Translations under genes and position numbers: made by a program
The notes under the pieces: model-generated
Seen by the model: the letters and a program-made list of their open reading frames with translations, nothing else
What the model was told of the DNA's origin: nothing
The model's database searches: none
Shown: positions 1,758 to 18,191 of the stretch, one piece after another
Position numbering within the stretch: the first letter of the stretch is position 1
How the letters are laid out: each line of letters begins with the position of its first letter
DNA from: an uncultured Gemmatimonadales bacterium
GTDB taxonomy: Bacteria; Gemmatimonadota; Gemmatimonadetes; Gemmatimonadales; GWC2-71-9
Reading direction: 5' to 3'
Length of the DNA: 64,000 nt
Assembly (NCBI GenBank): GCA_963821525.1
Contig: CAWGED010000004.1
Coordinates: 64,001 to 128,000 of the forward strand

Positions 1758-4700
1758 ATGAATCTCGCCGCCGGTAATTGCCGATTTTTCGTCCTGCGCA
1801 CTCCGCTGCTCCCGGTCGAAACCCTACTCGACTGGAGCAGTGGGCTCAGCGCGCGGCTGAGCTACGACCGGGGTGAGTCCCTGGCGGCCGCACTCGCCAC
1901 CGATCGGGCCCTCCTCCGCAGTCGTCTCGCCAAACTCCTGGAACATCCCGAGATCCGGGAGGCGATCTTCGTTGCCTCGCCCAGTCTGGATGAAGCGCTC
2001 GAGCACTGGTTCCGGAACCCGGATAGTGAAAAGGGCCAGAGGGTCGAGTGGGGCCTGGTCCGCTACCTGTGCCGCATGGCCAGTCGGCCGACGCCATTTG
2101 GCCTCTTCGCGGGAATCTCACTTGGCCGGGTCGCGAAGCAGACCTGCCTGAAGATTGGAGGCCGCGAAGCGAACGAGCGGCACACCAGGCTCGACAACGA
2201 CTACTTGTTCGCACTGGTTCAGGCGTTGGCGAGCGATTCAACGCTCCGCGACGCCCTTCGATACCGTCCCAACGACAGCCTCTCTCCGGGCGCGGGGCGC
2301 TTCCGCTACGTCGAGGCCCGGGTCGATGGCACCCTGCGGACCTATCACCTCGTCAGCGCGGACGACACTCCAGAGCTCCGCTCGACCATCGCCAGGGCGG
2401 AGGACGGTGCCACTCGCGCCGAGCTGAGCGAAGCCCTGGTTGCTCACGATGTTGATCGCCTGGAAGCCGATAAGTACGTAGACGAGCTGATTTCGGCTCA
2501 ACTCCTCGTGCCGGACCTGGAGCTGCCTGTCACCGGTCCTGAACCGCTCCCCACCCTGATCCGGGAGCTGGAGGCGCACCCTTCGCAGGAGGCCACTCTT
2601 CAGACTCTCCGGTCAGTCGATGCGACGCTAGCAGAATTCGATCGATCCGGTGGAACTGCCCCCACCCGGTACCGTGAACTGGCCAGGTCGCTGGAGCCGC
2701 TTCCCGCAAAGGCCGAGCTGGCGACTCTTTTTCAGGTGGATCTGGTCAAGCGGGCGCCAGAGCTGACGATCGGAGACTCGGTAGTCCGGGAGATCGACCG
2801 GGCCATCGAGATCCTGCATCGCCTGGGAGGCCTTCGCGGCAGCGACCCTCTGGCCCGATTCCGGGAGGCTTTTCTCGAGCGGTACGAAGAGCGCGAGGTC
2901 CCGCTACTCGAAGCCCTGGACGACGAGGTCGGGCTGGGCGGCCTGATCGCCACCGGAGGTGATCCATCTCCACTGCTCCGGGGAATCGGCTTTCCCGAAT
3001 CGCCGGAGACGGACCACACCTGGGGAAACCGCGAACACCATCAACTGCTGCTCCTTGGAACCGCGTTGCAGGATGGCCGGGAAGAGATCCTGCTCGAGGC
3101 AAAGGACCTCGAACGGTTGGAGATCCCCGGCAAACACCCCCTGCCCCAATCTCTGGAACTGATGGCAAGCATCCTCGCCAAATCGGCCGCGGCGATCGAC
3201 CGTGGCGAATTCCGGCTGTGGGTCGACAGCACCAGCGGCCCTCCGGGAGCGCGCTATCTGGGCAGGTTCTGCCACGGAGATGATGCCCTCGCGAGGGAAG
3301 TGGACGCGTTGCTTCGCGCCGAAGAGCAACAGCATCCGGACGACCTGTATGCCGAGATCGTGCATCTTCCCGAAGGCCGGATGGGAAACATCCTCCTGCG
3401 GCCCCAGCTGCGGAGCCATGAGATCACCTATCTGGGACGGTCGGGAGCGCCCAGAGAGCAGCAAATCCCTGCCAGCGATCTGCTGCTCTCCCACAAGCAC
3501 CGGCAATTCGTTCTGCGCTCCGCCCGGTTGGGCCGGCGGATAATCCCTCGCCTTACTACAGCTCACGCCTACAACCGTGGCCTCGGCGTCTATCGATTCC
3601 TCTGCCTTCTGCAGTTCGAACATGTGGCCGACACACTGGCGTGGGGCTGGGGACCCCTGGCCAGCGCCCCGTTTCTACCGCGGGTGCGATCCGGTCGTCT
3701 CATACTTTGCCCCCGACGCTGGAACCTTTCTCAGAACGAGTGCAACCGGCTTGGCACGCTGACCGGGGAGGAACAGTTCCGGGCGGTCCAGGAATGGCGC
3801 ACCCAAAGGCGCCTGCCCCGGTGGATCGTCCTCGCCGATTACGACAATCGTCTCGCGGTAGACCTGGAAAACGTGCTCTCGGTGGAGGCCTTTACCCATG
3901 CCTTGAAGAAGCGGGACTCGGCAATGCTCGAGGAGACCTTGCTGGCTTCGGAGGACGAGCCGGTCGAAGGTCCCGATGGTCATTATGCCCATGAGATTGT
4001 CGTGCCCATCGCGCGGCCGGTAACGAGCGCGGTCAGGGTTCCCGAAGCGCGGAGACCGGCGACCGCTCCGCAGGTACAGCGCTCGTTTTCACCCGGCTCG
4101 GCATGGCTCTCCATAAAGCTCTACTGCGGCGAGTCCATCGCCGACGAGATCCTCACCGAGGTCATCGGGCCCCTCACCCATCAATTGCTGGAAGACGGCG
4201 CCGCCAAGGGCTGGTTCTTCATCCGCTATGGCGACCCGGCCCTCCATCTGCGCTGGCGTCTCGCGGGTGATCCAGCAGCCCTGTCCGCCACAGCCCGGCC
4301 CGCTGTCGAGGCGGCGGCGGCGCGCCTGCTCGACGAGGGGAAAATCTGGCGGGTGCAACTCGACACCTACCAGCGCGAAATCGAGCGATACGGCGGCCCC
4401 GAAGCGATTCTGCTGGCGGAGCGGCTCTTTCAGGCCGATAGCGACGCGGTCTTTCGGATCATGGAGCTGGTGGATCCTGGGGACGCTGGGCTGGATGAGA
4501 GATGGCGTCTTGCCGTGCGCGGAATGGACCAGCTCCTGGCCGATCTTGGCTTCGATCATCCCGGTCGGAGCGAGTACGCCAAGCGGTGGGTTGAGGAAGC
4601 ATTTGAAAACCCCGAAAGCAGCGCGGGATTGCGGCCCCAGCTCAGCGATCGCTTTCGGAAGGAGCGCGCGCGACTCGAATCGCTGCTCGATCGGACCCGG

Positions 4701-4982
4701 GACCCCGACAGCGATCTGGGTCCTGGACTCGCGATTCTCCATCAGCGCTCAGAAAGCCTCGCCCCAATAGGGGCGGAACTCCGGAGGCTGGAGCAGGAGG
4801 GGCGTCTCCGGGTGCCGGTGGATGAACTGGCCCAAAGCTTCGTTCACATGCACGTCAATCGGCTGCTTCGGTCCGCCCAGCGCCAGCATGAAGTGGTCCT
4901 TCACGATTTCCTGCATCGGCTTTACCAAGCCCAAGCCGCGCGGGCGGCCGCAAAACGGCCAGCGCCGGAGCCGGCGCAATGA
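1758..4982 (+). CDS. lanB: Class I lanthipeptide dehydratase (full-length: glutamylation + elimination domains)
   Basis: 1074 aa. Motifs FVLRTPLLP, SRPTPFGLFAG, FLPRVRSG, WLSIKLYCG, WFFIRYGDP-HLRWR, YQREIERYGG, HMHVNRL. Confidence 0.95.
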   Translation: MNLAAGNCRFFVLRTPLLPVETLLDWSSGLSARLSYDRGESLAAALATDRALLRSRLAKLLEHPEIREAIFVASPSLDEALEHWFRNPDSEKGQRVEWGLVRYLCRMASRPTPFGLFAGISLGRVAKQTCLKIGGREANERHTRLDNDYLFALVQALASDSTLRDALRYRPNDSLSPGAGRFRYVEARVDGTLRTYHLVSADDTPELRSTIARAEDGATRAELSEALVAHDVDRLEADKYVDELISAQLLVPDLELPVTGPEPLPTLIRELEAHPSQEATLQTLRSVDATLAEFDRSGGTAPTRYRELARSLEPLPAKAELATLFQVDLVKRAPELTIGDSVVREIDRAIEILHRLGGLRGSDPLARFREAFLERYEEREVPLLEALDDEVGLGGLIATGGDPSPLLRGIGFPESPETDHTWGNREHHQLLLLGTALQDGREEILLEAKDLERLEIPGKHPLPQSLELMASILAKSAAAIDRGEFRLWVDSTSGPPGARYLGRFCHGDDALAREVDALLRAEEQQHPDDLYAEIVHLPEGRMGNILLRPQLRSHEITYLGRSGAPREQQIPASDLLLSHKHRQFVLRSARLGRRIIPRLTTAHAYNRGLGVYRFLCLLQFEHVADTLAWGWGPLASAPFLPRVRSGRLILCPRRWNLSQNECNRLGTLTGEEQFRAVQEWRTQRRLPRWIVLADYDNRLAVDLENVLSVEAFTHALKKRDSAMLEETLLASEDEPVEGPDGHYAHEIVVPIARPVTSAVRVPEARRPATAPQVQRSFSPGSAWLSIKLYCGESIADEILTEVIGPLTHQLLEDGAAKGWFFIRYGDPALHLRWRLAGDPAALSATARPAVEAAAARLLDEGKIWRVQLDTYQREIERYGGPEAILLAERLFQADSDAVFRIMELVDPGDAGLDERWRLAVRGMDQLLADLGFDHPGRSEYAKRWVEEAFENPESSAGLRPQLSDRFRKERARLESLLDRTRDPDSDLGPGLAILHQRSESLAPIGAELRRLEQEGRLRVPVDELAQSFVHMHVNRLLRSAQRQHEVVLHDFLHRLYQAQAARAAAKRPAPEPAQ

Positions 4983-6310
4983 ACGCGGCGGGTGAATGGC
5001 AACCGCTCCTCGATGGTTCGCTTCGGGGCCAGGCGCTCGAGACAATCGGCGACATCGCGGAAGCTCTTAGACATCCGCCAGAGCCCACGCCAGCCGAGGG
5101 CAACACCAGCGAAACGACTCAGGCCCTCAAGCTTGGGCTCATGACCGGCCGGGCCGGATTGGCTGTGTTCTTTGCCTATCTGGCGGAAGCCGGCCTGCAC
5201 AAAGATGCGGAAGGGCTCGCCTGGGATTTTCTCGAGGAGTCCGAAGCCGGCCTGACGGAACACTGGATGGGCGCGTCACTGTGCGAGGGATTCACCGGTA
5301 TCGCCTGGGCTCACGCTCATCTGCACCAGGCACTGTCGCACGCGCGGGATCGCGGTGAGCTCAAGGAGCTCGATGAAGCGCTTCTCGCCTTGCTGCGCGA
5401 CTGGCCCAGCCCGGATCAGTACGAGCTCTTGTATGGGATGGTGGGCATCGGTGTGTATGCGCTCGAGAGGCTTCCCCGCCCTCGGGCTCGGACGATGCTG
5501 CGACTCATCGTCGAGCGGTTGGAAGAATCGGCCCAACCCATGAAGGACGGCATCGCGTGGAGCTCGCCAGAGAACCCAGCTGGCCCGAGCGGCGAATACA
5601 ACCTTGGCATGGCGCACGGGATTCCGGGCGTGATCGCGTTTCTGGCCCGCACGGCGGCTGCGCCGCTACAGCGCAGGAAGGCTCTCTCCCTCCTCGGGGG
5701 CGCAGTCAGCTGGCTCCGCGGCCAGCGTCTCACTCCTGAGGAGGGTGGTGGGTTTCCCGCCTCCATCACGCCCGGGGAGCTCCCCACTCCTACCCGACTC
5801 GCCTGGTGTTACGGCGACCCCGGCGTCACAACTGCGCTGCTGCCCGCAGCCAGGATGTTGGAGCTCCCCGAGCTTGAAAAGGAGGCGGTCCAGGTCGCAA
5901 TCAGCGCGGGCAAGCGCACGACAGAAGAGAGCGGGGTGGTGGATGCCGGGCTGTGTCACGGTGCCGCCGGCGTCGGACACCTCTACCACCGCCTCTACCG
6001 GGCCACCGGCGACTTGCGACTGAGAGCGATCGCTCGCCGATGGTTTGCTCATACTCTCGAACTCCGCCGGCCGGGGACGGGGGTCGCCGGGTTTGCCCCG
6101 GCAGACTCGCCGGAGAATCAGAAAGTGAACGCCGGAGAACGAATCGACGCCGGCGTCCTCTCGGGGACTGCAGGAATAGGGTTAGCCCTTCTTGCGGCCA
6201 CTACGCCGGTGCCGCCACTCTGGGACCGCCTGCTCCTGGCGGATCTCCCTTCGATGGCGGTGCGCGCGGGACGGAATCACTTGGCGGCTTTAGCGCCGGG
6301 ACGGCGATAG
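4979..6310 (+). CDS. lanC: Lanthionine cyclase
   Basis: GMAHGIPG, WCYGDPG and LCHGAAG Zn-ligand motifs; ATGA overlap with the lanB stop. Confidence 0.95.
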   Translation: MNAAGEWQPLLDGSLRGQALETIGDIAEALRHPPEPTPAEGNTSETTQALKLGLMTGRAGLAVFFAYLAEAGLHKDAEGLAWDFLEESEAGLTEHWMGASLCEGFTGIAWAHAHLHQALSHARDRGELKELDEALLALLRDWPSPDQYELLYGMVGIGVYALERLPRPRARTMLRLIVERLEESAQPMKDGIAWSSPENPAGPSGEYNLGMAHGIPGVIAFLARTAAAPLQRRKALSLLGGAVSWLRGQRLTPEEGGGFPASITPGELPTPTRLAWCYGDPGVTTALLPAARMLELPELEKEAVQVAISAGKRTTEESGVVDAGLCHGAAGVGHLYHRLYRATGDLRLRAIARRWFAHTLELRRPGTGVAGFAPADSPENQKVNAGERIDAGVLSGTAGIGLALLAATTPVPPLWDRLLLADLPSMAVRAGRNHLAALAPGRR

Positions 6311-6375
6311 ATGAGTACAGGCAGTGCTGCCGGCCTGGGCGCCCAGCCGAAACTCGAACCCAACTGGAGGAACCG

Positions 6376-6555
6376 ATGACCAGGAAGACCACGAAGGGCT
6401 CCAAGGCCCCCCCCCGGAAGTCCAAGCGGCTCAGTCTCAGCAAGAAGACCCTCAAGGACCTGAACGTTTCCGGCACCGGTCCCCAAGGTGGGATGGGGAT
6501 AAAGGTCCCGCTGAGCCATTGTACCACTTGTCCCGCCAGCTGTCGCAAGGGCTGA
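6376..6555 (+). CDS. lanA: Lanthipeptide precursor (59 aa), double-glycine leader
   Basis: GGAGG RBS. MTRKTTKGSKAPPRKSKRLSLSKKTLKDLNVSGTGPQGG|MGIKVPLSHCTTCPASCRKG. Leader has LxLxKx5L; core has 2 Ser, 2 Thr and 3 Cys. Confidence 0.9.
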   Translation: MTRKTTKGSKAPPRKSKRLSLSKKTLKDLNVSGTGPQGGMGIKVPLSHCTTCPASCRKG

Positions 6556-6817: not shown

Positions 6818-7854
6818 ATGCAGGCTCTCTACGGGCGCCCGGTCTTCGTGGTCGAGGGCGACACGTTCTTCTGGGAAGACGTGGTGCTCGACGCGATCCG
6901 GCGCGGTAAATGGGCACAGCTGGAGCAGGAGGTTCGTGAAGGATTCGCCGCCTTGGAGGAGTTCGACTCCGCCGAGGACGACGAATTCGATGTGGCGGTA
7001 GACGAGGCTGCGCAGGAGTTCCGCTACGGTCGCGAGCTGGTCACCGCTCACGAGATGGAGGAGTGGCTCGCTGCGCGCGAGGTTAGTATTCGAGAGTGGA
7101 TGGACCACATCCGCCGTTCCGTTGCGCGGGCTCGCACCACCGAGGGATTGGCCGCCCTCGTAACACGCCATCCGATGGACCCGGATCAACTCGCCGAAGC
7201 GCTCCGGGTGGATCTCATTTGTTCCGGAGCAGGAGAGGAGCTCGCTGTCGCAGCTCGCACGACGCGCGGCCGCTGCAGCTGCCGCTGCGAGTTCAGCCAC
7301 ATCTGAATTGCCGTCTGAAGGCGGGCCGGTACCGACCAGTACTCCCTCCCGGACTCTCAGTCGAGCTGGCCCAGGAGCGGATCCACCTGCTGGCCCGGAT
7401 TGAAGAAGGCGCGGAGCAGTTCCGGAGAAGCTCGATCACGCCCGAGGCCATCCGGCGCGAGATCGGGCATCACCACACCGAATGGATCAGGATCGACTGC
7501 CGGGCTATCGCCTTCGATGATGAGGCTGGAGCCCGGGAAGGAGCCTTGTGTCTGAGGGAAGACGGGCTCCCGCTCGATGAGGTCGCCGCCGCGGCTCACG
7601 CGACAGTGTCCGAATCGCGCTTCTATCTCGACGATCTCGACCCCGAAGTCCGCCCGATGTTTCTGGCGGCGCGGCCGGTCGACCTGCTGGGACCCATCCT
7701 CTTCGAAGGAGCCCATACGCTGTTCCGCGTGACGGACAAGGTGATGCCCTCCGAGCAGGACCCGGAAATTCTGCGGCGGGCCGAAACGGGCGTTGAGGGG
7801 CGCCTCGTGGCCGCTCAGGCCCAGCAGCGAGTGAAGTGGCAGTTGGCCTGGTGA
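6818..7854 (+). CDS. SurA/PpiC (parvulin)-like peptide maturation/export accessory protein, frameshifted near 7260-7300
   Basis: Two overlapping ORFs (6818-7306 and 7096-7854) join into a SurA-N-like helical part (FRYGRELVTAHEMEEWL) and a PpiC-like part (AREGALCLREDGLPLDEVA...LLGPI). Lies directly upstream of the exporter. Confidence 0.65.
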
Positions 7855-7859
7855 CCGGA

Positions 7860-10800
7860 ATGGATACCGATTCCCTCGACGCGGTACTCCAGAGTCTCCC
7901 GGTGCTCGGCGGTCTTCCGCACGATGTGCGGGAAATCGTGGTCGCCAGTTTCGTCCCTGCCAGCTACACCTTTGGCCAGGCCATCGTCCAAGAAGGCGAT
8001 GCATCTGACGCGCTGTACGTACTGGTCTCCGGCCGGGTGCGGATGGTCAAGCGGGGAGAGAACGGAGACGAGATCTCCCTCGGCGCGCTCCGGCCCGGGG
8101 AGACCTTCGGCGAAGGCGGCTTCAGCGACCACACGGTCCATCCTGCCACCGTGCGAGCCAGCGGGGACGTGGAGGTGGTCCGCCTCGATCGATCGGTCTT
8201 CGACGCGCTCCTCCGGCGGCGGCCCGAGGTGCGCCAGTTTTTCGAGCTTCAGTCCCGCCTCCGCAACCTGCAGTTCTTCTTCCGGCAATTCACCGTCTTC
8301 GCGAAACTCCCGCCCGAAGCTCTGAACGACCTGCTCGCCAACCTGGAACCGATCGAGTATCGCAAGGGCGACGTGGTCATCCGCGAGGGGGATCCTCCCG
8401 GCCCGATGTACATCATCGAAGAGGGTCGCTGCCGGATCCACGTCGGAGTGGACGGCCGGCGCCGCAACGTCGCGTTCCTGAGGCGAGGGGAGTTCTTCGG
8501 CGAGTTGTCGGTGATCCGCGATGTGCCGCGGGATTCAACCGTCGAGGCGGTGACCCAGTGCCGCCTGCTGCGGCTCACCCGGGAGACATACCAGGAGCTC
8601 CTGGAGCAGCACCAGGCCTTCCGGGACGAGATCGAAGGGCGTGTCGCGCAGTACGATTTCATGCATACGGCGCAGATCCCGATCGACATGTTCCGGGAGA
8701 TGCTGCCAGCCGATGCGTCGGTGCTCAGCAAGGTGGGAGACGACCAGGTCGACCAGGACCTGACGCGCATGTGGGCGATCCCGCCTCGTCCCGAGCCCGC
8801 CCAGGCTGGAGCGGAACCCGCCCCCGCCCCCGAGCCGGAGGTAGCCCCCTTCGCCGACGATGAAGGGCGCTTCGTCAAGCGAAAGAAACGGATCCGCAAG
8901 TTCCCCCACGTCTTGCAGATCGACGAGATGGATTGTGGGGCGGCGAGCCTGGCGATCGTATGCCGGCACTACGGCAAGGCAGTGAGTCTCGCGCGGATTC
9001 GTCAGCTCAGCCACACCAGCCTCGATGGGACCAGTCTCCGGGCGATCTGCCAGTCCGCGACTGAACTGGGACTCGCTGCCCGGGCGGTGAAGGCCTCAGT
9101 CACCAACCTGGCCCAGATGCCGCTCCCCGCCATCGTGCATTGGGACGGTAATCACTGGGTGGTGCTGTACGATGTGGATGAGACCCACGTCAGGGTTTCC
9201 GACCCGTCCAGTGGCCGGCGCCGGCTCACTCGAGCGGACTTCGAGGCAAAATGGAGCGGCTACGCGGCACTGTTCGATTACACCACCGAGTTCGAGAAGA
9301 ACAAGGAGACCAAACTCGGGATCGCCTGGCTGCTCCCCTTTTTCAAGCCACACCGGGCCCTGCTCCTCCAAGCCGTCGGCCTGGCGCTCATCGTGAGTCT
9401 GCTCCAGATGGTCATCCCGGTCTTTACCCAGGTCATTGTGGACCGGGTCCTGGTCGAGCGCGATCTCAACCTGCTCAACATCCTGATCGCAGGAATGGGC
9501 GGGGTGATCGTCTTCACCCTGCTGGCCACGGTCATCCAGCGCTACCTCCTCAGCTTTGCCGCAGTCCGGGTCGACTCGGCAACGCTCGACTTCCTCACCC
9601 GGAGGCTGCTGAGCCTCCCGATGAACTACTTCAATACCCGGCGCACCGGGGACATCCAGCGCCGGCTACAGGGGATCTGGCTGGTCCGCGAGTTTCTGGT
9701 AGAGCACGGCGTAGCAGGGCTCACCGCCACCGCTCAGCTGTTGGCCTCGGTCGGCTTGATGCTGGTGTACAGCCCGCTGCTGACGCTGGTCTTCCTGTCC
9801 ACGGTGCCGCTGTTCGTCCTGCTGATGCGCTACTCCTCGAGCTGGCTTTTCCCGCTCTACTCCGAGCTGGAGGAATCGCACGGGAAGTACCAGTCCTTCC
9901 AGATCGATGCCATCAAGGGCATCGAGACGGTGAAATCCCTGGGCGCCGAGTCTGCCTTCCGGGACCTGATGCTGGCCCAATTCAACGGCGTCGCCCGCAA
10001 GCGATTCAAGGCGGATTTCACCCTGATGACCTACAACGGTTCCATCTACACGGTGACGCTGCTGTCCGTGGTGCTGTTCCTCATGGTGGGTGCCTACCAG
10101 GTGATGAACGGGCGGCTGTCGATCGGCGGGCTGGTGGCGTTCAACTCTCTGGTGGCGCTGGCCAATGCCCCGCTTCTCACCTTGCTCACCCTGTGGGACA
10201 ATCTTCAGCAGGCCACGGTCTACCTGAACCGGCTGGACGACATCTTCCAGCAGGAGCCGGAGCAGGGCGAGGATCGCTCGCGCCTCCTGCCGGTGAAGTC
10301 TCTCGAGGGGAGGATCAGTCTCCGCCACTTGGGCTTCCGCTATGGTGGTCCCGAGTCTCCCCCGATTCTGGATGACATCACCTTCGACGTTCCACCCAAC
10401 ACCATGGTGGCGATCGTCGGCCGCAGCGGATGTGGGAAGACCACCCTGATCAAATGTCTGGCCGGGCTGCTGGAGCCGACTGAGGGGACCATCCTCTACG
10501 ACGGGGTGGACCTCAAGTCCCTCAACTACCGGGATCTCCGGCGGAAGATCGGGTTCGTGCTGCAGGAGAATCACCTGTTCGACGACAGCATCGCCCGTAA
10601 CATCGGCTTTGGCGAGGAGGAGCCCGACTTCGACGACGTCATGTGGGCGGCCCAGACCGCTAACGCGCGGGAGTTTATCGAGCGGCTCCCGATGGGGTAT
10701 GACACCCGGATCGGGGAGTCGGGCATTGGCCTTTCGGGCGGGCAGAAGCAGCGCATCGCGATTGCGCGGGCCATCTACACCCGGCCTCCGGTCCTCATCT

Positions 10801-11039
10801 TCGACGAGGCTACCAGCGCGCTCGACGCCGAATCGGAACGCGCGGTAAAGGAGAACATCGATCAGCTGCTCGAGGGGCGCACCTCGTTCGTGATCGCCCA
10901 CCGGCTCAGCACCGTGCGCGATGCCGACGTGATCCTGGTGCTGGAGAAGGGCCGGCTGGTCGAGAGTGGCACCCATGATGATCTGATGAATCGCCAGGGG
11001 CTCTACTACTTCCTGGTCAGCCAGCAGTTGGGACTGTGA
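7860..11039 (+). CDS. Peptidase C39-containing ABC exporter (PCAT) with two N-terminal cNMP-binding domains
   Basis: Two CAP-like domains (IVQEGDASDALYVLVSG..GETFGE; VIREGDPPGPMYIIEEG..GEFFGE). C39 catalytic residues present (QIDEMDCGAA, HWDGNHWVV, VSDP). TM domain, Walker A GRSGCGKT, LSGGQKQR, DEATSALD. Alternative GTG start at 7836. Confidence 0.95.
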   Translation: MDTDSLDAVLQSLPVLGGLPHDVREIVVASFVPASYTFGQAIVQEGDASDALYVLVSGRVRMVKRGENGDEISLGALRPGETFGEGGFSDHTVHPATVRASGDVEVVRLDRSVFDALLRRRPEVRQFFELQSRLRNLQFFFRQFTVFAKLPPEALNDLLANLEPIEYRKGDVVIREGDPPGPMYIIEEGRCRIHVGVDGRRRNVAFLRRGEFFGELSVIRDVPRDSTVEAVTQCRLLRLTRETYQELLEQHQAFRDEIEGRVAQYDFMHTAQIPIDMFREMLPADASVLSKVGDDQVDQDLTRMWAIPPRPEPAQAGAEPAPAPEPEVAPFADDEGRFVKRKKRIRKFPHVLQIDEMDCGAASLAIVCRHYGKAVSLARIRQLSHTSLDGTSLRAICQSATELGLAARAVKASVTNLAQMPLPAIVHWDGNHWVVLYDVDETHVRVSDPSSGRRRLTRADFEAKWSGYAALFDYTTEFEKNKETKLGIAWLLPFFKPHRALLLQAVGLALIVSLLQMVIPVFTQVIVDRVLVERDLNLLNILIAGMGGVIVFTLLATVIQRYLLSFAAVRVDSATLDFLTRRLLSLPMNYFNTRRTGDIQRRLQGIWLVREFLVEHGVAGLTATAQLLASVGLMLVYSPLLTLVFLSTVPLFVLLMRYSSSWLFPLYSELEESHGKYQSFQIDAIKGIETVKSLGAESAFRDLMLAQFNGVARKRFKADFTLMTYNGSIYTVTLLSVVLFLMVGAYQVMNGRLSIGGLVAFNSLVALANAPLLTLLTLWDNLQQATVYLNRLDDIFQQEPEQGEDRSRLLPVKSLEGRISLRHLGFRYGGPESPPILDDITFDVPPNTMVAIVGRSGCGKTTLIKCLAGLLEPTEGTILYDGVDLKSLNYRDLRRKIGFVLQENHLFDDSIARNIGFGEEEPDFDDVMWAAQTANAREFIERLPMGYDTRIGESGIGLSGGQKQRIAIARAIYTRPPVLIFDEATSALDAESERAVKENIDQLLEGRTSFVIAHRLSTVRDADVILVLEKGRLVESGTHDDLMNRQGLYYFLVSQQLGL

Positions 11040-11049
11040 GTCAATTCAC

Positions 11050-11128
11050 GAATGGCAGAATGGAGGAATGGCGGAATGAGTCGTCAGCGCGCGCACCACC
11101 ATTCCGCCATTCCGCCATTCACTCATTC
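11050..11128. repeat. Inverted 8-nt tandem repeat hairpin (GGAATGGC)n / (CATTCCGC)n
   Basis: Seen directly between the ABC exporter and hlyD. Confidence 0.85.
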
Positions 11129-11141
11129 GACCATTTGAGAG

Positions 11142-12356
11142 ATGCCCGACGAATCCGCTCAACCCTACCTCGACACCACACCACCCCACTGGGTGGCGCG
11201 GGGGTTGGCGCACGTCATCATCGCCGCCTTTGCGCTGACTCTGGTAGCGGCGGTTCTGGTGAAGGTGCCCGAGACAGTCTCGGGACCTTTTACCCTGGTG
11301 CCGATCCGGGGAACCGATCCGGTACGGGCGGTGAAGAGCGGGGTGCTGGTCGAGGTGCGCGTCGCCGAAGGCGACAACGTGACCCGCGGCTCGACCCTCT
11401 TCCTCCTCCGCTCTGCCAGCATGAGCGATCGGGCGGCGGACCGGCTCACGCTCGAAAGCCAGTTGCGGGCTAATGAGCAGCGGCTGACCATCCTCAAGAG
11501 CCAGTATGACACCCGCAAGCGCTCGGATGAGGCAGAGGGGCGGCGGCTGCAGAACCGGATCCAGTTTCTCGAGGGGCTGATCACCTCCAAGAGCAAGCGC
11601 TTGGCCCTCACGAAGATGCTGGCAGATAGCTCCTCTTCCGGCGCCAAGCGGGGAGCAATCGGCCAACTCGAAGCGAGCAGGTTGGAGCTGGAATACAGCA
11701 CCCTCCAGGAAGAGGTTGACGGGGCGCGGAACGATCTCGCCGAGGCGAGATCCGACATTACCAGGCTGGAGGAGGACGGCAAGGCGAGGGACCTGGAATA
11801 CGAAGAGACCCGGCGAGGCCTTACCGAAGCCATCGAGGCCGGCCGGATCCGGGCCACGTCTCTCCAGCGGGATCTGGTCAATGCCACGGAGGGCGGCTTC
11901 TCGGTGATGGCCCCTTGCGACGGTGCGGTGCTGCGGTTGCACGTCAATGCGCCCGGGGCGGTGGTGCAGGAAGGGGACATTCTGAGCGAGATGGGTTGCG
12001 CCGGAGACCGCCTCCGGGGTGAGCTGCTCGTTCCGGAAGCCGGAGTTGCCCAGATTCGGCCGGGTCAGGGGGTCAAGCTCCGCTACGACGCCTTCCCCTA
12101 TCAGCGCTATGGCGTGCGGTTTGCCACCGTACGATGGCTGGGACCCGCCGGGTCGACCGCCCGGGACAGCGGAGAATTCCGCGCCCTGGTCGATCTGGCC
12201 GACGATTCCATCCGGGTCCACGGCCAGCTGCAGGCCTTGCTGCCCGGCATGGGTGGGCGCGCCGATATCGTGGTCGGCAGGCGATCCCTGATGAGCTACG
12301 CCTTCGAGCCGATTCGCGCCTTGCGGGAAAACTTCGCGGAGCCACCCCCTCGATGA
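11142..12356 (+). CDS. HlyD-family membrane fusion protein
   Basis: N-terminal TM, lipoyl-like half motifs (VEVRVAEGDNV; APCDGAV), coiled coil, GQGVKLRYDAFPYQRYG, LLPGMGGRADIVVGRRSL. Confidence 0.93.
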   Translation: MPDESAQPYLDTTPPHWVARGLAHVIIAAFALTLVAAVLVKVPETVSGPFTLVPIRGTDPVRAVKSGVLVEVRVAEGDNVTRGSTLFLLRSASMSDRAADRLTLESQLRANEQRLTILKSQYDTRKRSDEAEGRRLQNRIQFLEGLITSKSKRLALTKMLADSSSSGAKRGAIGQLEASRLELEYSTLQEEVDGARNDLAEARSDITRLEEDGKARDLEYEETRRGLTEAIEAGRIRATSLQRDLVNATEGGFSVMAPCDGAVLRLHVNAPGAVVQEGDILSEMGCAGDRLRGELLVPEAGVAQIRPGQGVKLRYDAFPYQRYGVRFATVRWLGPAGSTARDSGEFRALVDLADDSIRVHGQLQALLPGMGGRADIVVGRRSLMSYAFEPIRALRENFAEPPPR

Positions 12357-13372
12357 ATGAACCTGGCGTCAACGGTGAACGCCAACGGGAGTGGCACCAC
12401 ACGCTCGAGGATTTCCAGAGCGACGACGAGCCCATGGCCACCTGCCTCGGGCTCGCCCGGATCGCGGCCCGTACCGAGCTGCCGATCCTCATCCTGGGAG
12501 AGACCGGCACCGGGAAGACCCTGCTCGCCCGGGCCGTTCACAACTCCTCCCGCCGCTCAACCCATCCCTTCATCGCCTTCAACTCCGCCGCCCTGAGCGA
12601 TACCCTCCTCGACAGCCAGCTGTTCGGCCATGAGAAGGGAGCCTTCACCGGCGCGATTCGGAGGGTCAAGGGGAAGTTCGAGCTGGCGGATCACGGGACG
12701 CTGTTCCTCGACGAGATCGCGGACATGAGCCCGGCGGCACAGGCCAAGATCCTGCGCGCCGTCGAGTATGGCGAATTCGAACGCCTCGGCAGCGAGCAAC
12801 TGCTCCAGGCCGATGTGCGGCTTATCTCGGCGACTCACCTGCCGCTGGCCCGTTATCTGGAGACCGACCACTTTCGGAAGGACCTGTTCTACCGGATCAG
12901 CGGGATCACCCTCAGGCTCCCTTCGCTGCGGCAACGCCCCAACGATCTCCGCACCATCATGGCCGCCGCGATCGCCACGGCCAGCGCGGCGCTCAACAAG
13001 TCGATCGTTGGGCTGAGCCGGCCCGCCGCTGACCGGCTCCTGAGCTATGACTGGCCGGGGAACCTTCGGGAACTCCAGCGGGTGATTCACACCGCCGTCG
13101 CGATCACCGAGGGTGAAGTGATCCCACCGGAGGCGATCCTCCTGGGAACCTCGGTGGAAGCGGTCCACGCCGAAGAAACCAACGGCACGGGAGACCACCC
13201 GACGCCGAGTTCCGCGCTCATTGCCGCTCCTCCTTCGGACCTCTCCCTCCGGGCCGCCGAGTTGCGGCACATCCATGCAGTCCTGGATTCCTATCACGGC
13301 AACAAGCGCCGGGCGGCCCGGGCCCTCGGCCTCTCTCGCTCCACCCTGGATCGGAAGCTTCACGGGGAGTGA
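12353..13372 (+). CDS. Sigma54-dependent enhancer-binding activator lacking an N-terminal regulatory domain
   Basis: ATGA overlap with hlyD. GETGTGKT, SQLFGHEKGAFTGA, FLDEI, FRKDLFYR, WPGNLREL, Fis-type HTH (GNKRRAARALGLSRSTL). Confidence 0.93.
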   Translation: MNEPGVNGERQREWHHTLEDFQSDDEPMATCLGLARIAARTELPILILGETGTGKTLLARAVHNSSRRSTHPFIAFNSAALSDTLLDSQLFGHEKGAFTGAIRRVKGKFELADHGTLFLDEIADMSPAAQAKILRAVEYGEFERLGSEQLLQADVRLISATHLPLARYLETDHFRKDLFYRISGITLRLPSLRQRPNDLRTIMAAAIATASAALNKSIVGLSRPAADRLLSYDWPGNLRELQRVIHTAVAITEGEVIPPEAILLGTSVEAVHAEETNGTGDHPTPSSALIAAPPSDLSLRAAELRHIHAVLDSYHGNKRRAARALGLSRSTLDRKLHGE

Positions 13373-13504: not shown

Positions 13505-13522
13505 TGCGGCACGCCACCTGCC
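13505..13522 (+). promoter_or_regulatory. Sigma54 -24/-12 promoter, copy 1
   Basis: TGCGGCACGCCACCTGC = GGCACG start with exact GG-N10-GC spacing. Confidence 0.75.
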
Positions 13523-13603: not shown

Positions 13604-13720
13604 ATGGCTGCCAAGAAGAGCCTCAAGGTCAAGGACCTTCCCCGCAAGGCAATCGACTCGAAGAAGGCGGCCAATGTGAAGGGTGGATACACGAAGTTTA
13701 CCAAGCCTCGCACGCCGTGA
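13604..13720 (+). CDS. Double-glycine leader peptide A1 (38 aa)
   Basis: AGGAGG RBS; MAAKKSLKVKDLPRKAIDSKKAANVKGG|YTKFTKPRTP; synonymous changes relative to A2. Confidence 0.88.
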   Translation: MAAKKSLKVKDLPRKAIDSKKAANVKGGYTKFTKPRTP

Positions 13721-13777
13721 AGAGCGAATCGATTGAAGCGTAGTGACCGGACGTATTTTCCCCCTCGAGGAGGAAGT

Positions 13778-13894
13778 ATGACGAGCAAGGACAAAGAAGT
13801 TCGCGATCTGCCCGAGCGTAAGATCCCCGACAACAAGGCGGATCAGGTCAAGGGCGGCGCCATTGCCACGGCGAAACCCAAGAACTCGCTGTAA
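13778..13894 (+). CDS. Double-glycine leader peptide B1 (38 aa)
   Basis: GAGGAGG RBS; MTSKDKEVRDLPERKIPDNKADQVKGG|AIATAKPKNSL. Confidence 0.88.
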   Translation: MTSKDKEVRDLPERKIPDNKADQVKGGAIATAKPKNSL

Positions 13895-13904
13895 GGCAGC
13901 CCAT

Positions 13905-13944
13905 CCAGCGATCCCCGTTTGGCCACCCCGACGGGGATCGCCGG
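13905..13944 (+). other. Strong intergenic hairpin without U-tract
   Basis: GCGATCCCCGT...ACGGGGATCGC; same stem at 14953-14992. Confidence 0.75.
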
Positions 13945-13970
13945 CCCTCTGATCAAACAGGAACTGGCCC

Positions 13971-14108
13971 ATGACACCCCAGCAGGACCGTAAAGCCCAA
14001 AAGGATGAGAGAGCCGCCGATGAGGTGATTCGGCTGGAAGATCTCGCGCCGCGCGGGGACATCAAAGGCGGAGCCAAGCTTCGCTTCGGCGAAGCGGCGG
14101 CGAAGTAA
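13971..14108 (+). CDS. Double-glycine leader peptide C1 (45 aa)
   Basis: AGGA RBS; MTPQQDRKAQKDERAADEVIRLEDLAPRGDIKGG|AKLRFGEAAAK. Confidence 0.8.
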   Translation: MTPQQDRKAQKDERAADEVIRLEDLAPRGDIKGGAKLRFGEAAAK

Positions 14109-14160
14109 CCGCGCGGACACTCTTCGGGCGGTTGATCTTCCAGGGAAGGAACCTCAGCCA

Positions 14161-14256
14161 TCAGCGACTCGCGGTGAGTCGCGTGAGTGCCCGCGCGGCT
14201 GCCGCACGACGCAGTATCAGCAGGGAATCAGCCTTCTCCCACGCCCGCACTACCTC
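14161..14256 (-). pseudogene. Duplicated 3' fragment of the BTAD/TPR regulator
   Basis: Matches 15206-15300 (VVRAWEKADSLLI..RAxAARALTRLTASR*). Confidence 0.85.
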
Positions 14257-14412
14257 TCCCTTCGAAATTTCCCCGAATAGCTGATTGCGGTGCGGCGCCC
14301 AATAAATCCATCCTCAGGCTGAACCGACCGGCTGGCCCGTGGCCTCGTCCTCCCGCTCCACCCTCGACCGCAAGCTTCACGGGGATAACCGACGCGGAGT
14401 CCGGAGTCTTGC

Positions 14413-14449
14413 AGTCTCGTCCTGAGACTACGGGCCCGATGTTGGGACC
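14413..14449 (+). promoter_or_regulatory. Candidate activator binding site (UAS), copy 2
   Basis: Perfect AGTCTC-N5-GAGACT palindrome plus a TGGGAC half-site. Confidence 0.55.
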
Positions 14450-14547
14450 AGCGTTGGTTTCAGATTCGAACCGCCAGCTCCAACCGAGATCGGGCGCTCA
14501 GGACGGGAAGTGAGGATCACTGACTTGACTTGCGATTTCCTCTCCGG

Positions 14548-14565
14548 TGCGGCACGCGGTCTGCT
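14548..14565 (+). promoter_or_regulatory. Sigma54 -24/-12 promoter, copy 2
   Basis: TGCGGCACGCGGTCTGCT; GG-N10-GC retained while the spacer has diverged. Confidence 0.78.
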
Positions 14566-14647
14566 TTAGAAGCGGTCACAAGGCCGGAGCCGCCGGCCGA
14601 GAGCAACTCTCCCGCTCCAACCCGCAGTTCAAATTTCAGGAGGATGT

Positions 14648-14764
14648 ATGGCCGCCAAGAAGAGCCCCAAGGTTAAGGATCTGCCCCGGAAGGCGATTGA
14701 CCCCAAGAAGGCGGCCAACGTCAAGGGTGGATTGATCCAGCGGCAGAAGCCCCGCAAGCCGTAA
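14648..14764 (+). CDS. Double-glycine leader peptide A2 (38 aa)
   Basis: MAAKKSPKVKDLPRKAIDPKKAANVKGG|LIQRQKPRKP; AGGAGG RBS. Confidence 0.88.
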   Translation: MAAKKSPKVKDLPRKAIDPKKAANVKGGLIQRQKPRKP

Positions 14765-14824
14765 TAACTGAGCGACCGACTGTAGCGAAGTGACCGGACG
14801 TATTTTCCCCCTCGAGGAGGAAGT

Positions 14825-14941
14825 ATGACGAGCAAGGACAAGGAAGTTCGCGATCTGCCCGAGCGTAAGATCCCCAACACGAAGGCGGATCAGGTCAAGG
14901 GCGGCTCCGTTGCGACGACGCTGAAGAAGCCGACCCGGTAA
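14825..14941 (+). CDS. Double-glycine leader peptide B2 (38 aa)
   Basis: MTSKDKEVRDLPERKIPNTKADQVKGG|SVATTLKKPTR; GAGGAGG RBS. Confidence 0.88.
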   Translation: MTSKDKEVRDLPERKIPNTKADQVKGGSVATTLKKPTR

Positions 14942-15018
14942 GGCAAACCCTTCCAGCGATCCCCGTTGGCCACTTCCGACGGGGATCGCCGGCCCTCCGA
15001 TCAAGTAGGATCTGGCGT

Positions 15019-15205: not shown

Positions 15206-18191
15206 TCAGCGACTCGCAGTGAGTCGCGTGAGCGCCCGCGCGGCACCCGCTCTCCGCGGTATCAATAGCGAATCAGCCTTCTCCCACGCCCGCACCACCT
15301 GGCGGTAATGCGCTGCCGCGCTGTCTCTTCCGCCGGCTGCTTCCCATGCCTCGCCCAGTCGTTCATGCAGGTCGGTCCGCGTCACATAGAGATTCCCGCC
15401 TTCGAAACTTCCGCGAATCGCCGCCTGCAGGATCGGAATTGCGTCCTTGGGCCGTTTGAGCCGCAACCAGATTGCTGCCAGCTCATAGTTGGTCCGGCTG
15501 AACCCGTCGCTCGGCGAGGTCATCGCCTTTTCGAACGCCTGAGCCGCCTCATATGAGAATCCCCGAGACGCGAGCAACAACCCACGGATGTGGTAGTGCA
15601 ACCGCGCATCCCGGGCAAAACCGCTCGCCTCGGCCAGAGTACGGACAGAATCGGCCAGGACGCTGAGCCGGATGGTATCACCCATCGCAGCAAGCGCGTC
15701 GGCCATGTGGGTCCAGGCCCAGACCCGGTTCCGGGCCAGCGCCGAAGGATCCTCAAACCCGGAAGTGGATTTCGCGATCGAATCGAAGAGGGCAGCCGAC
15801 GCCTGATACTGCCCGCGGTCGAACAGCACCTGGGCCTCGAGGTAGGCACTGGTCGGCGCGCTGCCGGGTGGAGTGGGCTCCGCAAGGTCCCGCCGGTAGC
15901 GGTCTGCTAAATCCAGCGCTTCGGTGTATCGCCCTTCCTGCCGCAGTACGTTGGCCAGCTGCCAGCCCGCTTCCAGCCGGGTCTTGGGCGGCCCGCTCTG
16001 CAGCTCCACCCGCATGATCTGCTCCGCCTCGCCATAGGCGCCGGTGAAGAGATGGATGGCCATGAGAGTGTGGGCAGACTGGAAGCCGTCCGACCCGAGT
16101 GAATCGGCCACATGGAGGGCCGCGAGCGAACTGTCGGCCCAACCGCGCTGGGCCAGGACATTGGCATAGTATCGCCAGGCCTGTGCGGAGCCGGGTTGGA
16201 GCCGGGTCCAGAGTCGCGCGACGCCAAGCGCTCCGGCGATCGAATCGGCCATCAGGTACGACTCGCTGAGCGCCACCAGGCCCTCGCAGGCCATACAGCG
16301 CGGGCTGCGCCCCACCAGACCGAGAGAGTCCCGCGCGATCACTTCGTTCAATGGCTCCCGGGCACCGGCCCAATCGAGAGCCAGCAGCGCACCCTGCCCC
16401 GTGTACAGATACCCTTCGAGCTCCGAGGGATAGCGGACGGTAAGCGTCTCAGCGATGGCACGAAGCGCCGGCGACGAGTTGGCCAGGGCCCAGCTCGCCC
16501 CGATGAGGAGGCGCTCCCGGTCGCTGGCGCCCGCAGACAGGCTCACCGCCCGGCGGAGCCTGCGGAAGTATTCCGTGCGAGTCCCGGCTGAACTGTTGGC
16601 GTAATAGAACTGCGCCATCGCAAACGCAGAATCCTCCTTAAGAGCCTTGGCGAAGAGCTGCTCGGCCTGAGGAAGATTGCTCGCGAAATAGGTTCGGAGT
16701 CCCTCCTCGTAATAGCGATACGCCGCCACCGACCGGGTGGAGACACTGGCCAGCGAGCCCTCTGGAGCGCTGGCACCCAGATCCTGCGCCAGCCGCCGTG
16801 TCCCGGTATCGGCCAGTGCAAAGAGATCGTTCCCCTGAACGGTGTACGCCTGCAGCACCGCGCCGCTTCCCAAGTCTACTCGGCGGAGATCGAGCCTTAG
16901 CTTGTCCGGGCCCACCTGATAGAGAGCGCCGTCCACCAGCTCATTCGCGCCGGCCTTTCGAGCCGCCTCGACGACGACAGCGGCCGTGTCTCCTCCCGTC
17001 GCGAGCTGGCGGAGCAGCTCGTACATCCGGGCGCTGCTTACCACCTGCACACCGCTGGCGCGGGCCAGGTTGGTCGCCAGCATGTCGGAGAGCGGCAATC
17101 CGGCGACCGGCTTTCCACCGGGCTTGGTGTAGTCGGTGATCCGGCCGACCGCGACCAGCGTCGAGGTGCCGGAGGAGGTCAGAGCACTTGCCCGATTCGC
17201 AGTGGCACCCCCTCCCGACGTCAGGCGGCGTCCCGCCAGCCATCCCACACCGAGCAGCACCGCGGCCACTACGGCGACCAGGCGGATACCATTTCTGCCC
17301 CGTGATCCGGCGACGCCGTATTGCGGGGACTTCGGGCCCCGTCGCCGAGCTGATTGCCGCCCACCCACTCGTATGCCTGGAACCGGTGACCGCTTCGCTG
17401 AGGAATTCAGTTGGTGATGTGGGTTCCGGAGGAGCGGGCGCGACTGGCGTGGCCACCGGCTTAAGTCCGGGATCGCTCCGGGCGACACGGCGCAGCTCCT
17501 CGGCTAAGGCGATCACTTCCCGGTCGGGTGGGAGATCAAGCTCCTGTTGCAGCAGGGCCTCGTAGACCTTCGCGTGCTGGAGTGCTGCGGCCTGATCACC
17601 CTGCGCCACGTGAGCCCGCATCAGGGCGACCGCGACCTTGGCATTGAGAGGATCCAGTCCCGCGAGCTTCTTGAACCAGCCTACAGCGGCACGATGGTCG
17701 CCCGCCGCGGTTGCGCGCTGGCCCAGCTGTTCGAGCAGGTCGCCGTATTCCCGAACCAGGGTCTGCCGTTCCTGCTCGCTCCAGCGCTCGAACTCCTCGG
17801 CGCCGGGGAGATGGAACCCGTCGAGGAAGGGGCCACGGTACAACTCGACCGCGCGCTCCAGCGCCCCGGCGGCCAGCGCCGCCCGGAATTCCACCACATC
17901 AGCAGAAATGATTTCGGGATTCAGCCGGAGGTCTTTGACCCCGAGAAAGGCCTCCTCGGAGCCGAGGTCCTGACGCAAGGCGTAGAGGGCCTGGGTCAGG
18001 GCGCGCCGGGCCCGCTCTTCGTCGGCGTCGGGCCAGAGGAAACCGATGATTTTGTCCCGGGTCAGTCCCCTCTCACCCGCCACACCCAGCATCGCCAGCA
18101 GGGCAAGACGGCGTGGCTGGGCCGCCGCCCCAGCCATCGGGCGTCCAGCCTGCGTGACGTAAAGTGCACCTAAGACATTGATGTAAAGCAA
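15206..18191 (-). CDS. Membrane-anchored SARP/BTAD transcriptional regulator with TolB-N-like and TPR extracytoplasmic region; frameshift near 17290
   Basis: N-terminal wHTH-BTAD (QPRRLALLAML, LYRGPFLDGF, EEFERW) in ORF 16941-18191; TM segment IRLVAVVAAVLLGVGWL and helical repeats in ORF 15206-17488. Confidence 0.85.

Follow-up and report, generated by a model that had tools for sequence, protein, structure and literature searches.

Leader conservation and core replacement in tandemly encoded double-glycine precursor peptides of an uncultured Gemmatimonadales bacterium

The window, by which we mean the whole 64,000-nucleotide stretch of DNA analyzed, carries a putative export module followed by two small-peptide gene cassettes. 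The module runs in the order parvulin-fold protein, cNMP-C39 ABC transporter, HlyD and sigma-54 activator, all on the plus strand. Its first gene (6818-7854) encodes a SurA/PrsA-like parvulin-fold protein related to TIGR04500; it has a frame break near 7250 in this assembly and is intact (343 amino acids) in the homologous locus L063. The peptidase-containing ABC transporter (7860-11039) has two cNMP domains, a C39 domain with Cys/His/Asp motifs and ABC domains. It is followed by an HlyD-type adaptor (11142-12356) and by a sigma-54 activator (12353-13372) composed of AAA+ and Fis-type HTH domains only, without a sensor domain. Upstream of the module, on the same strand, lie accessory class I lanthipeptide genes (1758-6555): LanB at 1758-4982, LanC at 4979-6310 and a Cys-containing LanA at 6376-6555. 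Downstream of the cassettes, on the minus strand, is a SARP/BTAD-TM-TPR regulator (15206-18191), which is split into two overlapping frames here, with the break near 17300, and is a single ORF of about 1000 amino acids in L063 and L065.

Two genes of the cassette, A and B, encode 38-residue double-glycine precursors. The tandemly repeated cassette is about 1045 bp long, and each of its two units, which lie side by side, contains in order a promoter, A, B and a third gene, C. In unit 1 (plus strand), A1 (13604-13720) has a strong ribosome-binding site, a 28-amino-acid leader ending in KGG (13604-13687) and the 10-amino-acid core YTKFTKPRTP (13688-13717). B1 (13778-13894) has a 27-amino-acid leader (13778-13858) and the 11-amino-acid core AIATAKPKNSL (13859-13891), and C1 (13971-14108) has a longer leader ending in IKGG and a conserved core starting with AKLRFGE. 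In unit 2 (plus strand), A2 (14648-14764) has the core LIQRQKPRKP (14732-14761), which is devoid of Ser, Thr and Cys, B2 (14825-14941) has the core SVATTLKKPTR (14906-14938), and the core of C2 (15019-15180) is again conserved. A conserved hairpin in the interval between B1 and C1 (13908-13941, plus strand; z -2.57, 2 of 200 shuffles equally good) might act as an attenuator or stabilize the mRNA; the interval between B2 and C2 has one as well (14956-14989, plus strand; z -3.26, 0 of 200 shuffles equally good). None of the six window precursors matched Pfam or NCBIfam, and for one of 10 homolog proteins there was a match to EntF with an E value of 0.13, below the cut-off.

The repeat units are bounded by 3′-end remnants of both flanking genes. 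A remnant of the downstream TPR gene (14161-14290, minus strand), also seen in G004, closes unit 1, and a remnant of the sigma-54 activator gene (14350-14385, plus strand) opens unit 2. Tandem cassettes were also found in G004, L067 and L073, and single cassettes in G001, G003, L063, L064, L065 and L068. Unit 1 resembled the cassette of L062, and unit 2, in the part upstream of the A core, resembled the lone cassette of L063-L065. Because the two units resemble different single-cassette loci, A1 and A2 are better regarded as representatives of two allelic lineages, brought together in tandem, than as products of a recent duplication. The source names of the homologs were Gemmatimonadetes, Gemmatimonadota and Gemmatimonadales, and the sequencing runs that contained window DNA were soil and rhizosphere metagenomes. 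The activator gene was present in 25 of 401 genomes of the family (5 of 78 genera), and the parvulin-like gene in 17 of 301 genomes of the phylum, G499 among them.

A sequence-only reading of the two cassettes had counted 26 of 28 identical leader residues and 4 of 10 identical core residues between A1 and A2, and 25 of 27 and 3 of 11 between B1 and B2. Codon alignment reproduced both sets of counts exactly (Fisher p = 0.0017 for A and p = 0.00013 for B). The five third-position changes named there were all found, and the A leaders differ by 10 synonymous changes; the description of many such changes does not extend to the B leaders, which differ by 1.5. Divergence had been said to start right after GG. 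This holds at the protein level, at which entropy was 0 at positions -2 and -1 and rose at +1 to 2.7 bits for A (33 sequences) and 1.5 bits for B (32 sequences), with the reservation that some leader positions also vary, by up to 1.8 bits.

A conserved leader with a variable core is the textbook pattern for double-glycine peptides, and the leader/core observation alone would be ordinary. What the present locus adds is direct sequence evidence for how the diversity spreads, together with an internal control that does not vary. The leaders of C1 and C2, a pair that the sequence-only reading leaves unmentioned, also end in KGG, yet 9 of the first 11 core residues are identical, and the dN/dS of the C core was 0.09 by pooled pairwise counting. 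Since C keeps its core, the variable-core pattern is not general in the cassette.

For separate estimates of leader and core dN/dS, we drew on 14 genus-level loci; once four frameshifted genes had been set aside, these supplied nucleotide sequences for 11 A, 10 B and 11 C genes. Pooled pairwise counting, in which the sequences are related, the pairs non-independent and the core alignments gapped, gave 0.11 (A) and 0.22 (B) for the leaders and 1.07 (A; jackknife 0.99-1.11) and 1.03 (B; jackknife 0.92-1.18) for the cores. In a second genus, the leader and core values were 0.10 and 1.06 in one set and 0.11 and 1.63 in the other (6 sequences each). Pairwise GY94 estimates, rough values from a composite likelihood, were 0.03-0.12 for the leaders and 0.5 for the cores (0.25-1.0 within two likelihood units). 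Purifying selection on the leader and a faster core were thus seen in all four A/B sets, which refutes uniform rates across the two parts. The earlier proposal that these are real coding sequences is borne out by leader dN/dS of 0.03-0.22, by RNA-library contigs that cover the cassettes, and by the B cores, all nine of which have a length divisible by three and a stop at a fixed anchor.

Whether the cores are under selection for change is a separate matter. The whole-core values of 1.03-1.07 obtained by counting are also those expected from saturation, and positive selection in the form of a core dN/dS above 1 is not formally established. Indirect signs are on the side of selection for change. 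Nucleotide divergence was 0.39 and 0.37 in the cores against 0.13-0.20 in flanking non-coding segments (9 units), segments that are themselves constrained. Synonymous divergence in the cores was near background, at 0.82 and 1.31 times that of the activator gene. In the first three gap-free codons after GG, the diversity of positions 1 and 2 was 0.63 in A, against 0.48 at third positions, and 0.47 in B, against 0.47; the A value of 0.63 also exceeds the 0.35 at third positions of the A leader. These comparisons of sequences favor selection for change, and the diversifying selection suggested by the sequence-only reading is probable, although in the genus set no estimate puts the whole-core dN/dS clearly above 1: counting yields about 1 and the codon model about 0.5.

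Comparison of nearly identical strains revealed how new cores arrive. L063 and L064 have 8 differences in about 10 kb and then 63 in the last 380 nucleotides, where they start with the first B-core base. Between L065 and L072 there are none in about 2 kb, followed by dense differences that again begin at this base. The differences between window unit 1 and L062 likewise begin at the first B-core base, so the breakpoint lay on the first core base in all three near-identical pairs examined. As near-identical strains diverge from the first base after the GG of the B gene, whole cores have been replaced by recombination. Replacement also involves A: window unit 2 and L072 differ in the A core and the following spacer and are identical over 14810-14987, which includes the whole B gene, and in L067 the leaders differ between the two units, which nevertheless share the core end and the spacer. 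Core replacement at the cleavage junction is the new element of this work; replacement of the core as a whole block had been overlooked in the initial reading of the sequence.

Synonymous divergence in the B leader was 0.30 times that of the activator gene, compared with 0.99 times for the A leader. Such abnormal conservation of the B leader is as expected of a homology arm, a role in which it appears to serve. RNA folding of the B leader, checked for a structured-RNA cause of the conservation, gave z values of -1.5 to -1.9, which are unconvincing; an RNA-level constraint may still contribute. The unusually homogeneous B leader also accounts for part of the leader/core contrast in B. Core types are occasionally shared by A and B. 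The core ATSLPRKPSR was found behind an A leader (P0083) and behind a B leader (L067). In A and B cores with 7-9 residues in common, most of the shared codons differ synonymously (6 of 7 and 6 of 9), so the shared core types are old or convergent. A ComEC gene is present in the genome.

The sharp boundary at GG and the very high number of alleles could also be produced by a programmed diversifier that rewrites the cores, either a diversity-generating retroelement or conversion from silent cassettes. We searched the genome (81% complete) for a reverse transcriptase and found none. Of 39 substitutions between close core alleles, 13 involve the base A, with no adenine bias, and no silent core copies occur elsewhere in the genome. 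This explanation, already largely refuted by these results, is hardly credible, and we rejected it.

To describe the cores themselves, we collected 29 A and 27 B distinct genus-level cores from protein searches (61 + 77 matches), cluster members and loci, and removed 7 entries that looked frameshifted before counting. All 56 cores were 8-12 residues long with a net charge of +2 to +4. They contained one acidic residue in 586 and no Cys. The dipeptide Lys-Pro occurred in 52 of the 56 cores, compared with a maximum of 32 in 5000 shuffles, although the search profiles contained cores and may have enriched matches that carry it. In 1000 neutral simulation runs at a comparable divergence (d = 0.2), the lowest number of acidic residues was 5 and the highest number of cores with Lys-Pro was 41; with d = 0.1 these extremes were 2 and 52. 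The tight length, the charge, the absence of Cys and the Lys-Pro content across the 56 cores reject the view that they are neutral tails. Among 138 family-wide cores, with none dropped, 3.0% of residues were acidic and 0.3% were Cys, and 15 cores were pentapeptides; the three Cys-containing cores each looked frameshifted or like a read-through.

Might the cores be further substrates of the adjacent lanthipeptide enzymes, to be dehydrated or cross-linked by them? LanB and LanC lie 7-12 kb upstream of A and B, many A and B cores are rich in Thr and Ser, and the LanA leader has LxDL...GG in common with the A and B leaders. Set against this, Cys is absent from all 56 cores and Ser and Thr are both absent from 10 of them, A2 included. 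LanB occurs in just 4 of the 26 genomes that carry the module, so that 22 keep the module without it, and there is no LanBC beside the module in L063, L064 and G004. LanBC also has a LanA of its own. We regard this possibility as very improbable; LanBC as the maturation route of A and B was ruled out by the Cys-free cores and the co-occurrence in 4 of 26 genomes.

The strict limits on composition raise a more serious alternative, in which the cores are cationic, Pro-rich cargo with a physical role, such as in a matrix, in adhesion or in binding of polyanions or minerals. Charge, length and Lys-Pro would then be fixed by selection while the order of residues drifts, and recombination would only reassort the products. 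The core dN/dS not exceeding 1, the charge of +2 to +4 with tight length in 56 of 56 cores and the failure to find a receptor or immunity gene in the locus all fit this explanation, and there is a precedent in the EbfG proteins with a GG motif, which enable cyanobacterial biofilms (PMC4997328). Recombination from divergent strains together with selection on composition could indeed yield much of the observed pattern. It fits less well with core divergence two to three times that of the adjacent non-coding DNA, with identical cores that persist across up to 6 leader variants, or with B breakpoints at the first base of the core in all three near-identical pairs examined; and the mature parts of EbfG, as given in the portion of that source consulted, are 6-7 kDa rather than 1 kDa. 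We therefore consider it possible, on the unlikely side.

Several features suggest that the cores leave the cell. The C39 domain matched PF03412 (E = 3e-37), its catalytic Cys, His and Asp motifs could be located, and it was the only C39 domain found in the genome (81% complete). Of 151 distinct precursors, selected with a pattern that required G at -2, all had G there and 99% had G at -1; position -4 was V or I and position -12 was I, V, L or M in every one of them, and position -7 was Ala, not Leu, in 95%. GG leaders are described as hydrophobic at -4, -7 and -12 (PMC6363468). The A and B leaders also share the motif [VI]xDLP at -20 to -16. Cleavage after GG, as proposed from the sequence of the cassettes, is borne out as an inference by the residues at -4 and -12 and by the C39 motifs, and the cores would then be exported by the adjacent C39-ABC transporter. 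For the parvulin-like homolog from L063, alignment-based prediction gave a model with a pLDDT of 95.8, the parvulin domain of which matched 3gpk (Z 10.3, rmsd 2.5, 94 aligned residues); the model resembles SurA/PrsA-type proteins. TIGR04500 matched 99 of 121 parvulin-like homologs and gave 17 bits for the window fragment, with a cut-off of 180. This protein probably chaperones the Pro-rich cargo.

The length and conservation of the leader invite another explanation, that the leader is the active product, which stays inside and controls the activator or the transporter, while the core is a disposable export tag. The leader makes up 27-28 of the 38 residues and is strongly conserved far past the -12 recognition zone, the activator has no sensor domain, and a model of this kind was proposed for HetC (PMC10986499). 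The accelerated change and repeated replacement of the core would remain unexplained, and a motif as distal as -18 can help a transporter to select its substrates, as it does for RtgAB, which recognizes a motif 18 residues before the cut (PMC7018657). We think this explanation quite improbable.

The cassettes are preceded by sigma-54 promoter-like sites on the plus strand at 13507-13521 (cassette 1) and 14550-14564 (cassette 2), which follow what we take to be the -24/-12 consensus. A strict -24/-12 pattern, tuned after the sites at A1 and A2 had been seen, had 12 matches in the 4.33-Mb genome, two of them just upstream of A1 and A2. Of 22 family loci, 14 have a strict or relaxed site 69-99 nucleotides ahead of the first precursor, and 8 have none nearby. 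A scan with the generic sigma-54 consensus and two mismatches was uninformative (19 matches, with 22.5 expected), which leaves the weight on the stricter pattern and on conservation across loci; a scan for sigma-70 promoters and terminators gave nothing exceeding chance, and Rfam gave a single chance-level match (E = 0.78). When contigs were scanned with the activator, the 80 loci obtained were of the generic NtrC type (35-50% identity) and were left out of the analysis. RNA-library contigs from three studies matched the cassettes at 98-99% (for example, 536 nucleotides with 4 differences, 226 with 1 and 311 with 2). They hint at transcription of the cassettes, from runs that were selected with window DNA and contigs that carry neither strand nor level. 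The HlyD and TPR genes were almost uncovered in the three RNA runs, where low coverage carries no proof. The sites and the domain content of the activator suggest that A, B and C form an operon that the sensor-less sigma-54 activator would drive from the -24/-12 sites.

A dedicated activator without a sensor domain might be read as part of a classical pherotype system, in which the core is a quorum-sensing signal and a matching receptor feeds back on the activator, in the manner of ComC/ComD or BlpC/BlpH. The GG leader, the short unmodified core, the discrete recurring alleles and the change of alleles by recombination are all in line with this, and such a pattern is described for streptococci (PMC7595303). 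The only candidate receptor nearby, the SARP-TM-TPR regulator, does not vary with the cores. Strains that differ in their cores have copies of it that are 95-96% identical, a remnant of 98 codons is all that is left of it in G001, and unrelated genes take its place in other genera; it was rejected as the receptor. Comparison of the locus, rather than of whole genomes, revealed no receptor that co-varies with the peptide, and no ORF between or after A, B and C in the locus tracks the cores as an immunity gene might, of the kind that lies beside class II microcins and other unmodified bacteriocins. Moreover, four different variable cores occur in one genome, and the 56 cores in one genus-level set stand against 6 comC alleles in pneumococcus in the cited account (PMC7595303). 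Pherotypes of this type appear improbable here, and the locus contains no matching receptor and no immunity gene that would back the label of specificity variants given to the cores in the sequence-only reading.

The reading that we prefer, with a probability of roughly 0.5, is that A and B yield unmodified, cationic peptides that the cell exports and on which frequency-dependent selection acts when strains interact; their target or receptor would not be linked to the locus. Export combined with recombinational shuffling of the cores is the part that we hold likely; given these, we lean somewhat toward interaction-driven diversifying selection. The sensor-less activator would switch on the A-B-C operon, and the adjacent C39-ABC transporter with HlyD would, from what is known of these families, cut after GG and export cores of 8-12 residues, with the parvulin-fold protein probably acting as chaperone of the Pro-rich cargo. 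From the gene content, a tailoring enzyme is unnecessary. The cores are kept short, cationic and Lys-Pro-containing and otherwise vary enormously; new ones arise by substitutions and in-frame indels and are passed on by homologous recombination, from strain to strain, from one tandem copy to the other and, now and then, from A to B or back. The conserved leader and the downstream spacer act as homology arms, as observed for strain pairs. The two window cassettes are probably distinct allelic lineages placed side by side, which doubles the peptide repertoire. The driver would most likely be frequency-dependent selection on extracellular peptides in competition or recognition among neighboring strains, and C, with its fixed core, would be the better candidate for a signal shared by the whole species.

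A more specific elaboration of this reading, which we put forward as doubtful, is a combinatorial identity code in uncultured soil Gemmatimonadota. It would consist of a pool of more than fifty alleles of 10-residue Lys-Pro peptides, swaps at the GG junction with the leader as an arm, stacked foreign cassettes that widen the set of each strain, an unlinked, non-cognate target through which the peptides are read or withstood, and an invariant C that signals species-wide to the sensor-less sigma-54 activator. If the cores act in an allele-specific manner without a linked receptor or immunity gene, this would be a new mode of strain-level interaction.

Known systems share parts of this arrangement. 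Closest in gene content are the cyanobacterial bacteriocin clusters of groups I, II and VI (Wang et al. 2011; PMC3140520), which, in the part of that study relevant here, have in common with the present locus a long-type transporter with cNMP and C39-ABC domains, HlyD, a rotamase/SurA protein and arrays of GG precursors. The HetP-type leader motif KIxDLxYLEx10GG has DL at -18/-17, as in A and B, while its YLE is absent here. Unlike the clusters as described there, the Gemmatimonadales locus has two cNMP domains, a dedicated sensor-less sigma-54 activator and cationic, Cys-free cores of 8-12 residues, and it belongs to a different phylum. We found no description of the A/B/C peptide family in the open-access literature; supplements such as Table S3 of PMC3140520 could list similar leaders.

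The streptococcal GG-peptide loci ComC/BlpC (PMC7595303) and rtg (PMC7018657) share the conserved leader, the variable mature peptide, the exchange of alleles by recombination and strain-variable peptide arrays, as far as the cited portions describe them. In pherotype systems, each peptide allele is paired with a receptor allele (PMC7595303). Unlike the streptococcal GG loci, the Gemmatimonadales locus has neither a histidine-kinase or Rgg receptor nor immunity-like ORFs; it has far more alleles and type I export of the Gram-negative kind. Prochlorosins also combine a conserved GG leader with hypervariable cores, which indels and gene transfer have shaped, but as characterized in the cited passages they have long Nif11 leaders, cores with Cys, Ser and Thr, and LanM (PMC10783134), whereas the A and B cores are much shorter and cannot be modified by cyclization.

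EbfG1-4 and PteB of Synechococcus elongatus resemble our locus in that an operon of several small GG proteins lies next to a C39 exporter (PMC4997328). In the sections of that paper concerned, an antibiotic function is not shown for EbfG1-4, as it is not for A and B, and allele swapping, which was found for the A and B cores, is not described. HetC of Nostoc, like the present transporter, has a cNMP domain and an active C39 peptidase in one protein (PMC10986499), and by analogy this likeness suggests that nucleotide (ppGpp) might gate the transporter; in the excerpt cited, HetC has neither an adjacent HlyD nor a known substrate. Against this background, A and B represent an undescribed family of very short, unmodified, cationic GG peptides in a poorly cultured soil phylum, and their variable, swapped cores suggest that neighbors use them to compete with or recognize one another. 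The cargo of long-type cNMP-C39 exporters thereby becomes testable with cheap peptides and a standard heterologous transporter.

The HlyD and sigma-54 activator genes showed mosaic patches of raised divergence between strains that were otherwise nearly identical (window 11993-13193 compared with locus L062 of a relative; 8306-8706 of locus L065 compared with L068). Recombination thus occurs often throughout the locus. In sequencing run X6, a contig joint led from window position 14332 back to 13078, that is, 1255 nt backwards, which suggests that some strain has a longer tandem unit taking in more of the activator gene. An additional A core allele was present in run X15, as a loose end at 14734.

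The LanBCA block was present in the window, in the related genomes G002 and G003 and in loci L065 and L073, and absent from L063, L064 and genome G004; it is an accessory insertion. A class I lanthipeptide precursor with an LxLSKKTLKDL...GG leader and three Cys lies at 6376-6555 in the window, at 14620 and 14964 in L031, and at 7427 and 7772 in L034. In G002 and G003 this precursor is followed by two additional ones, both Cys/Pro-rich.

A long inverted repeat, imperfect and built of GAATG/CATTC units, lies between the gene for the transporter and that for HlyD (11046-11140) and differs from strain to strain. The reading frame is broken at ~7250 in the parvulin-like gene and at ~17300 in the SARP-TM-TPR gene, whereas each gene is a single ORF in L063 and L065. 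The two breaks are possibly long-read assembly errors.

Away from the locus, the genome holding the window has five orphan GG-leader peptide genes, at C3:30105(-), C5:586646 and 586882(-), C16:142(+) and C18:12008(-). Because a single C39 transporter and a single LanBC were found in this genome, these may act in trans on the five peptides. The C16 and C18 genes encode one and the same Cys-containing peptide; the C3 peptide matched NF047798 weakly (E 0.0045, below the cut-off). Further sigma-54-like sites, at C5:1144094(+) and C8:181763(+), were located upstream of a gene of pilin type and of one for a small secreted protein; co-regulation is possible.

The 90% cluster of B1 also included P0009, an unrelated 559-aa membrane protein, whose membership is a database clustering artefact. 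Genus g8 (L037, L163) has a Cys-rich 360-aa gene after the cassette, and in L037 the parvulin-like gene and the transporter are separated by two other GG peptides with longer Gln/Met-containing cores (14009 and 14294). B-type cores in genus g18 (L035, L046, L047, L048, L057) are reduced to pentapeptides with R[KR] at the start and, frequently, an acidic residue at the end, unlike the Lys-Pro cores of the window's genus.
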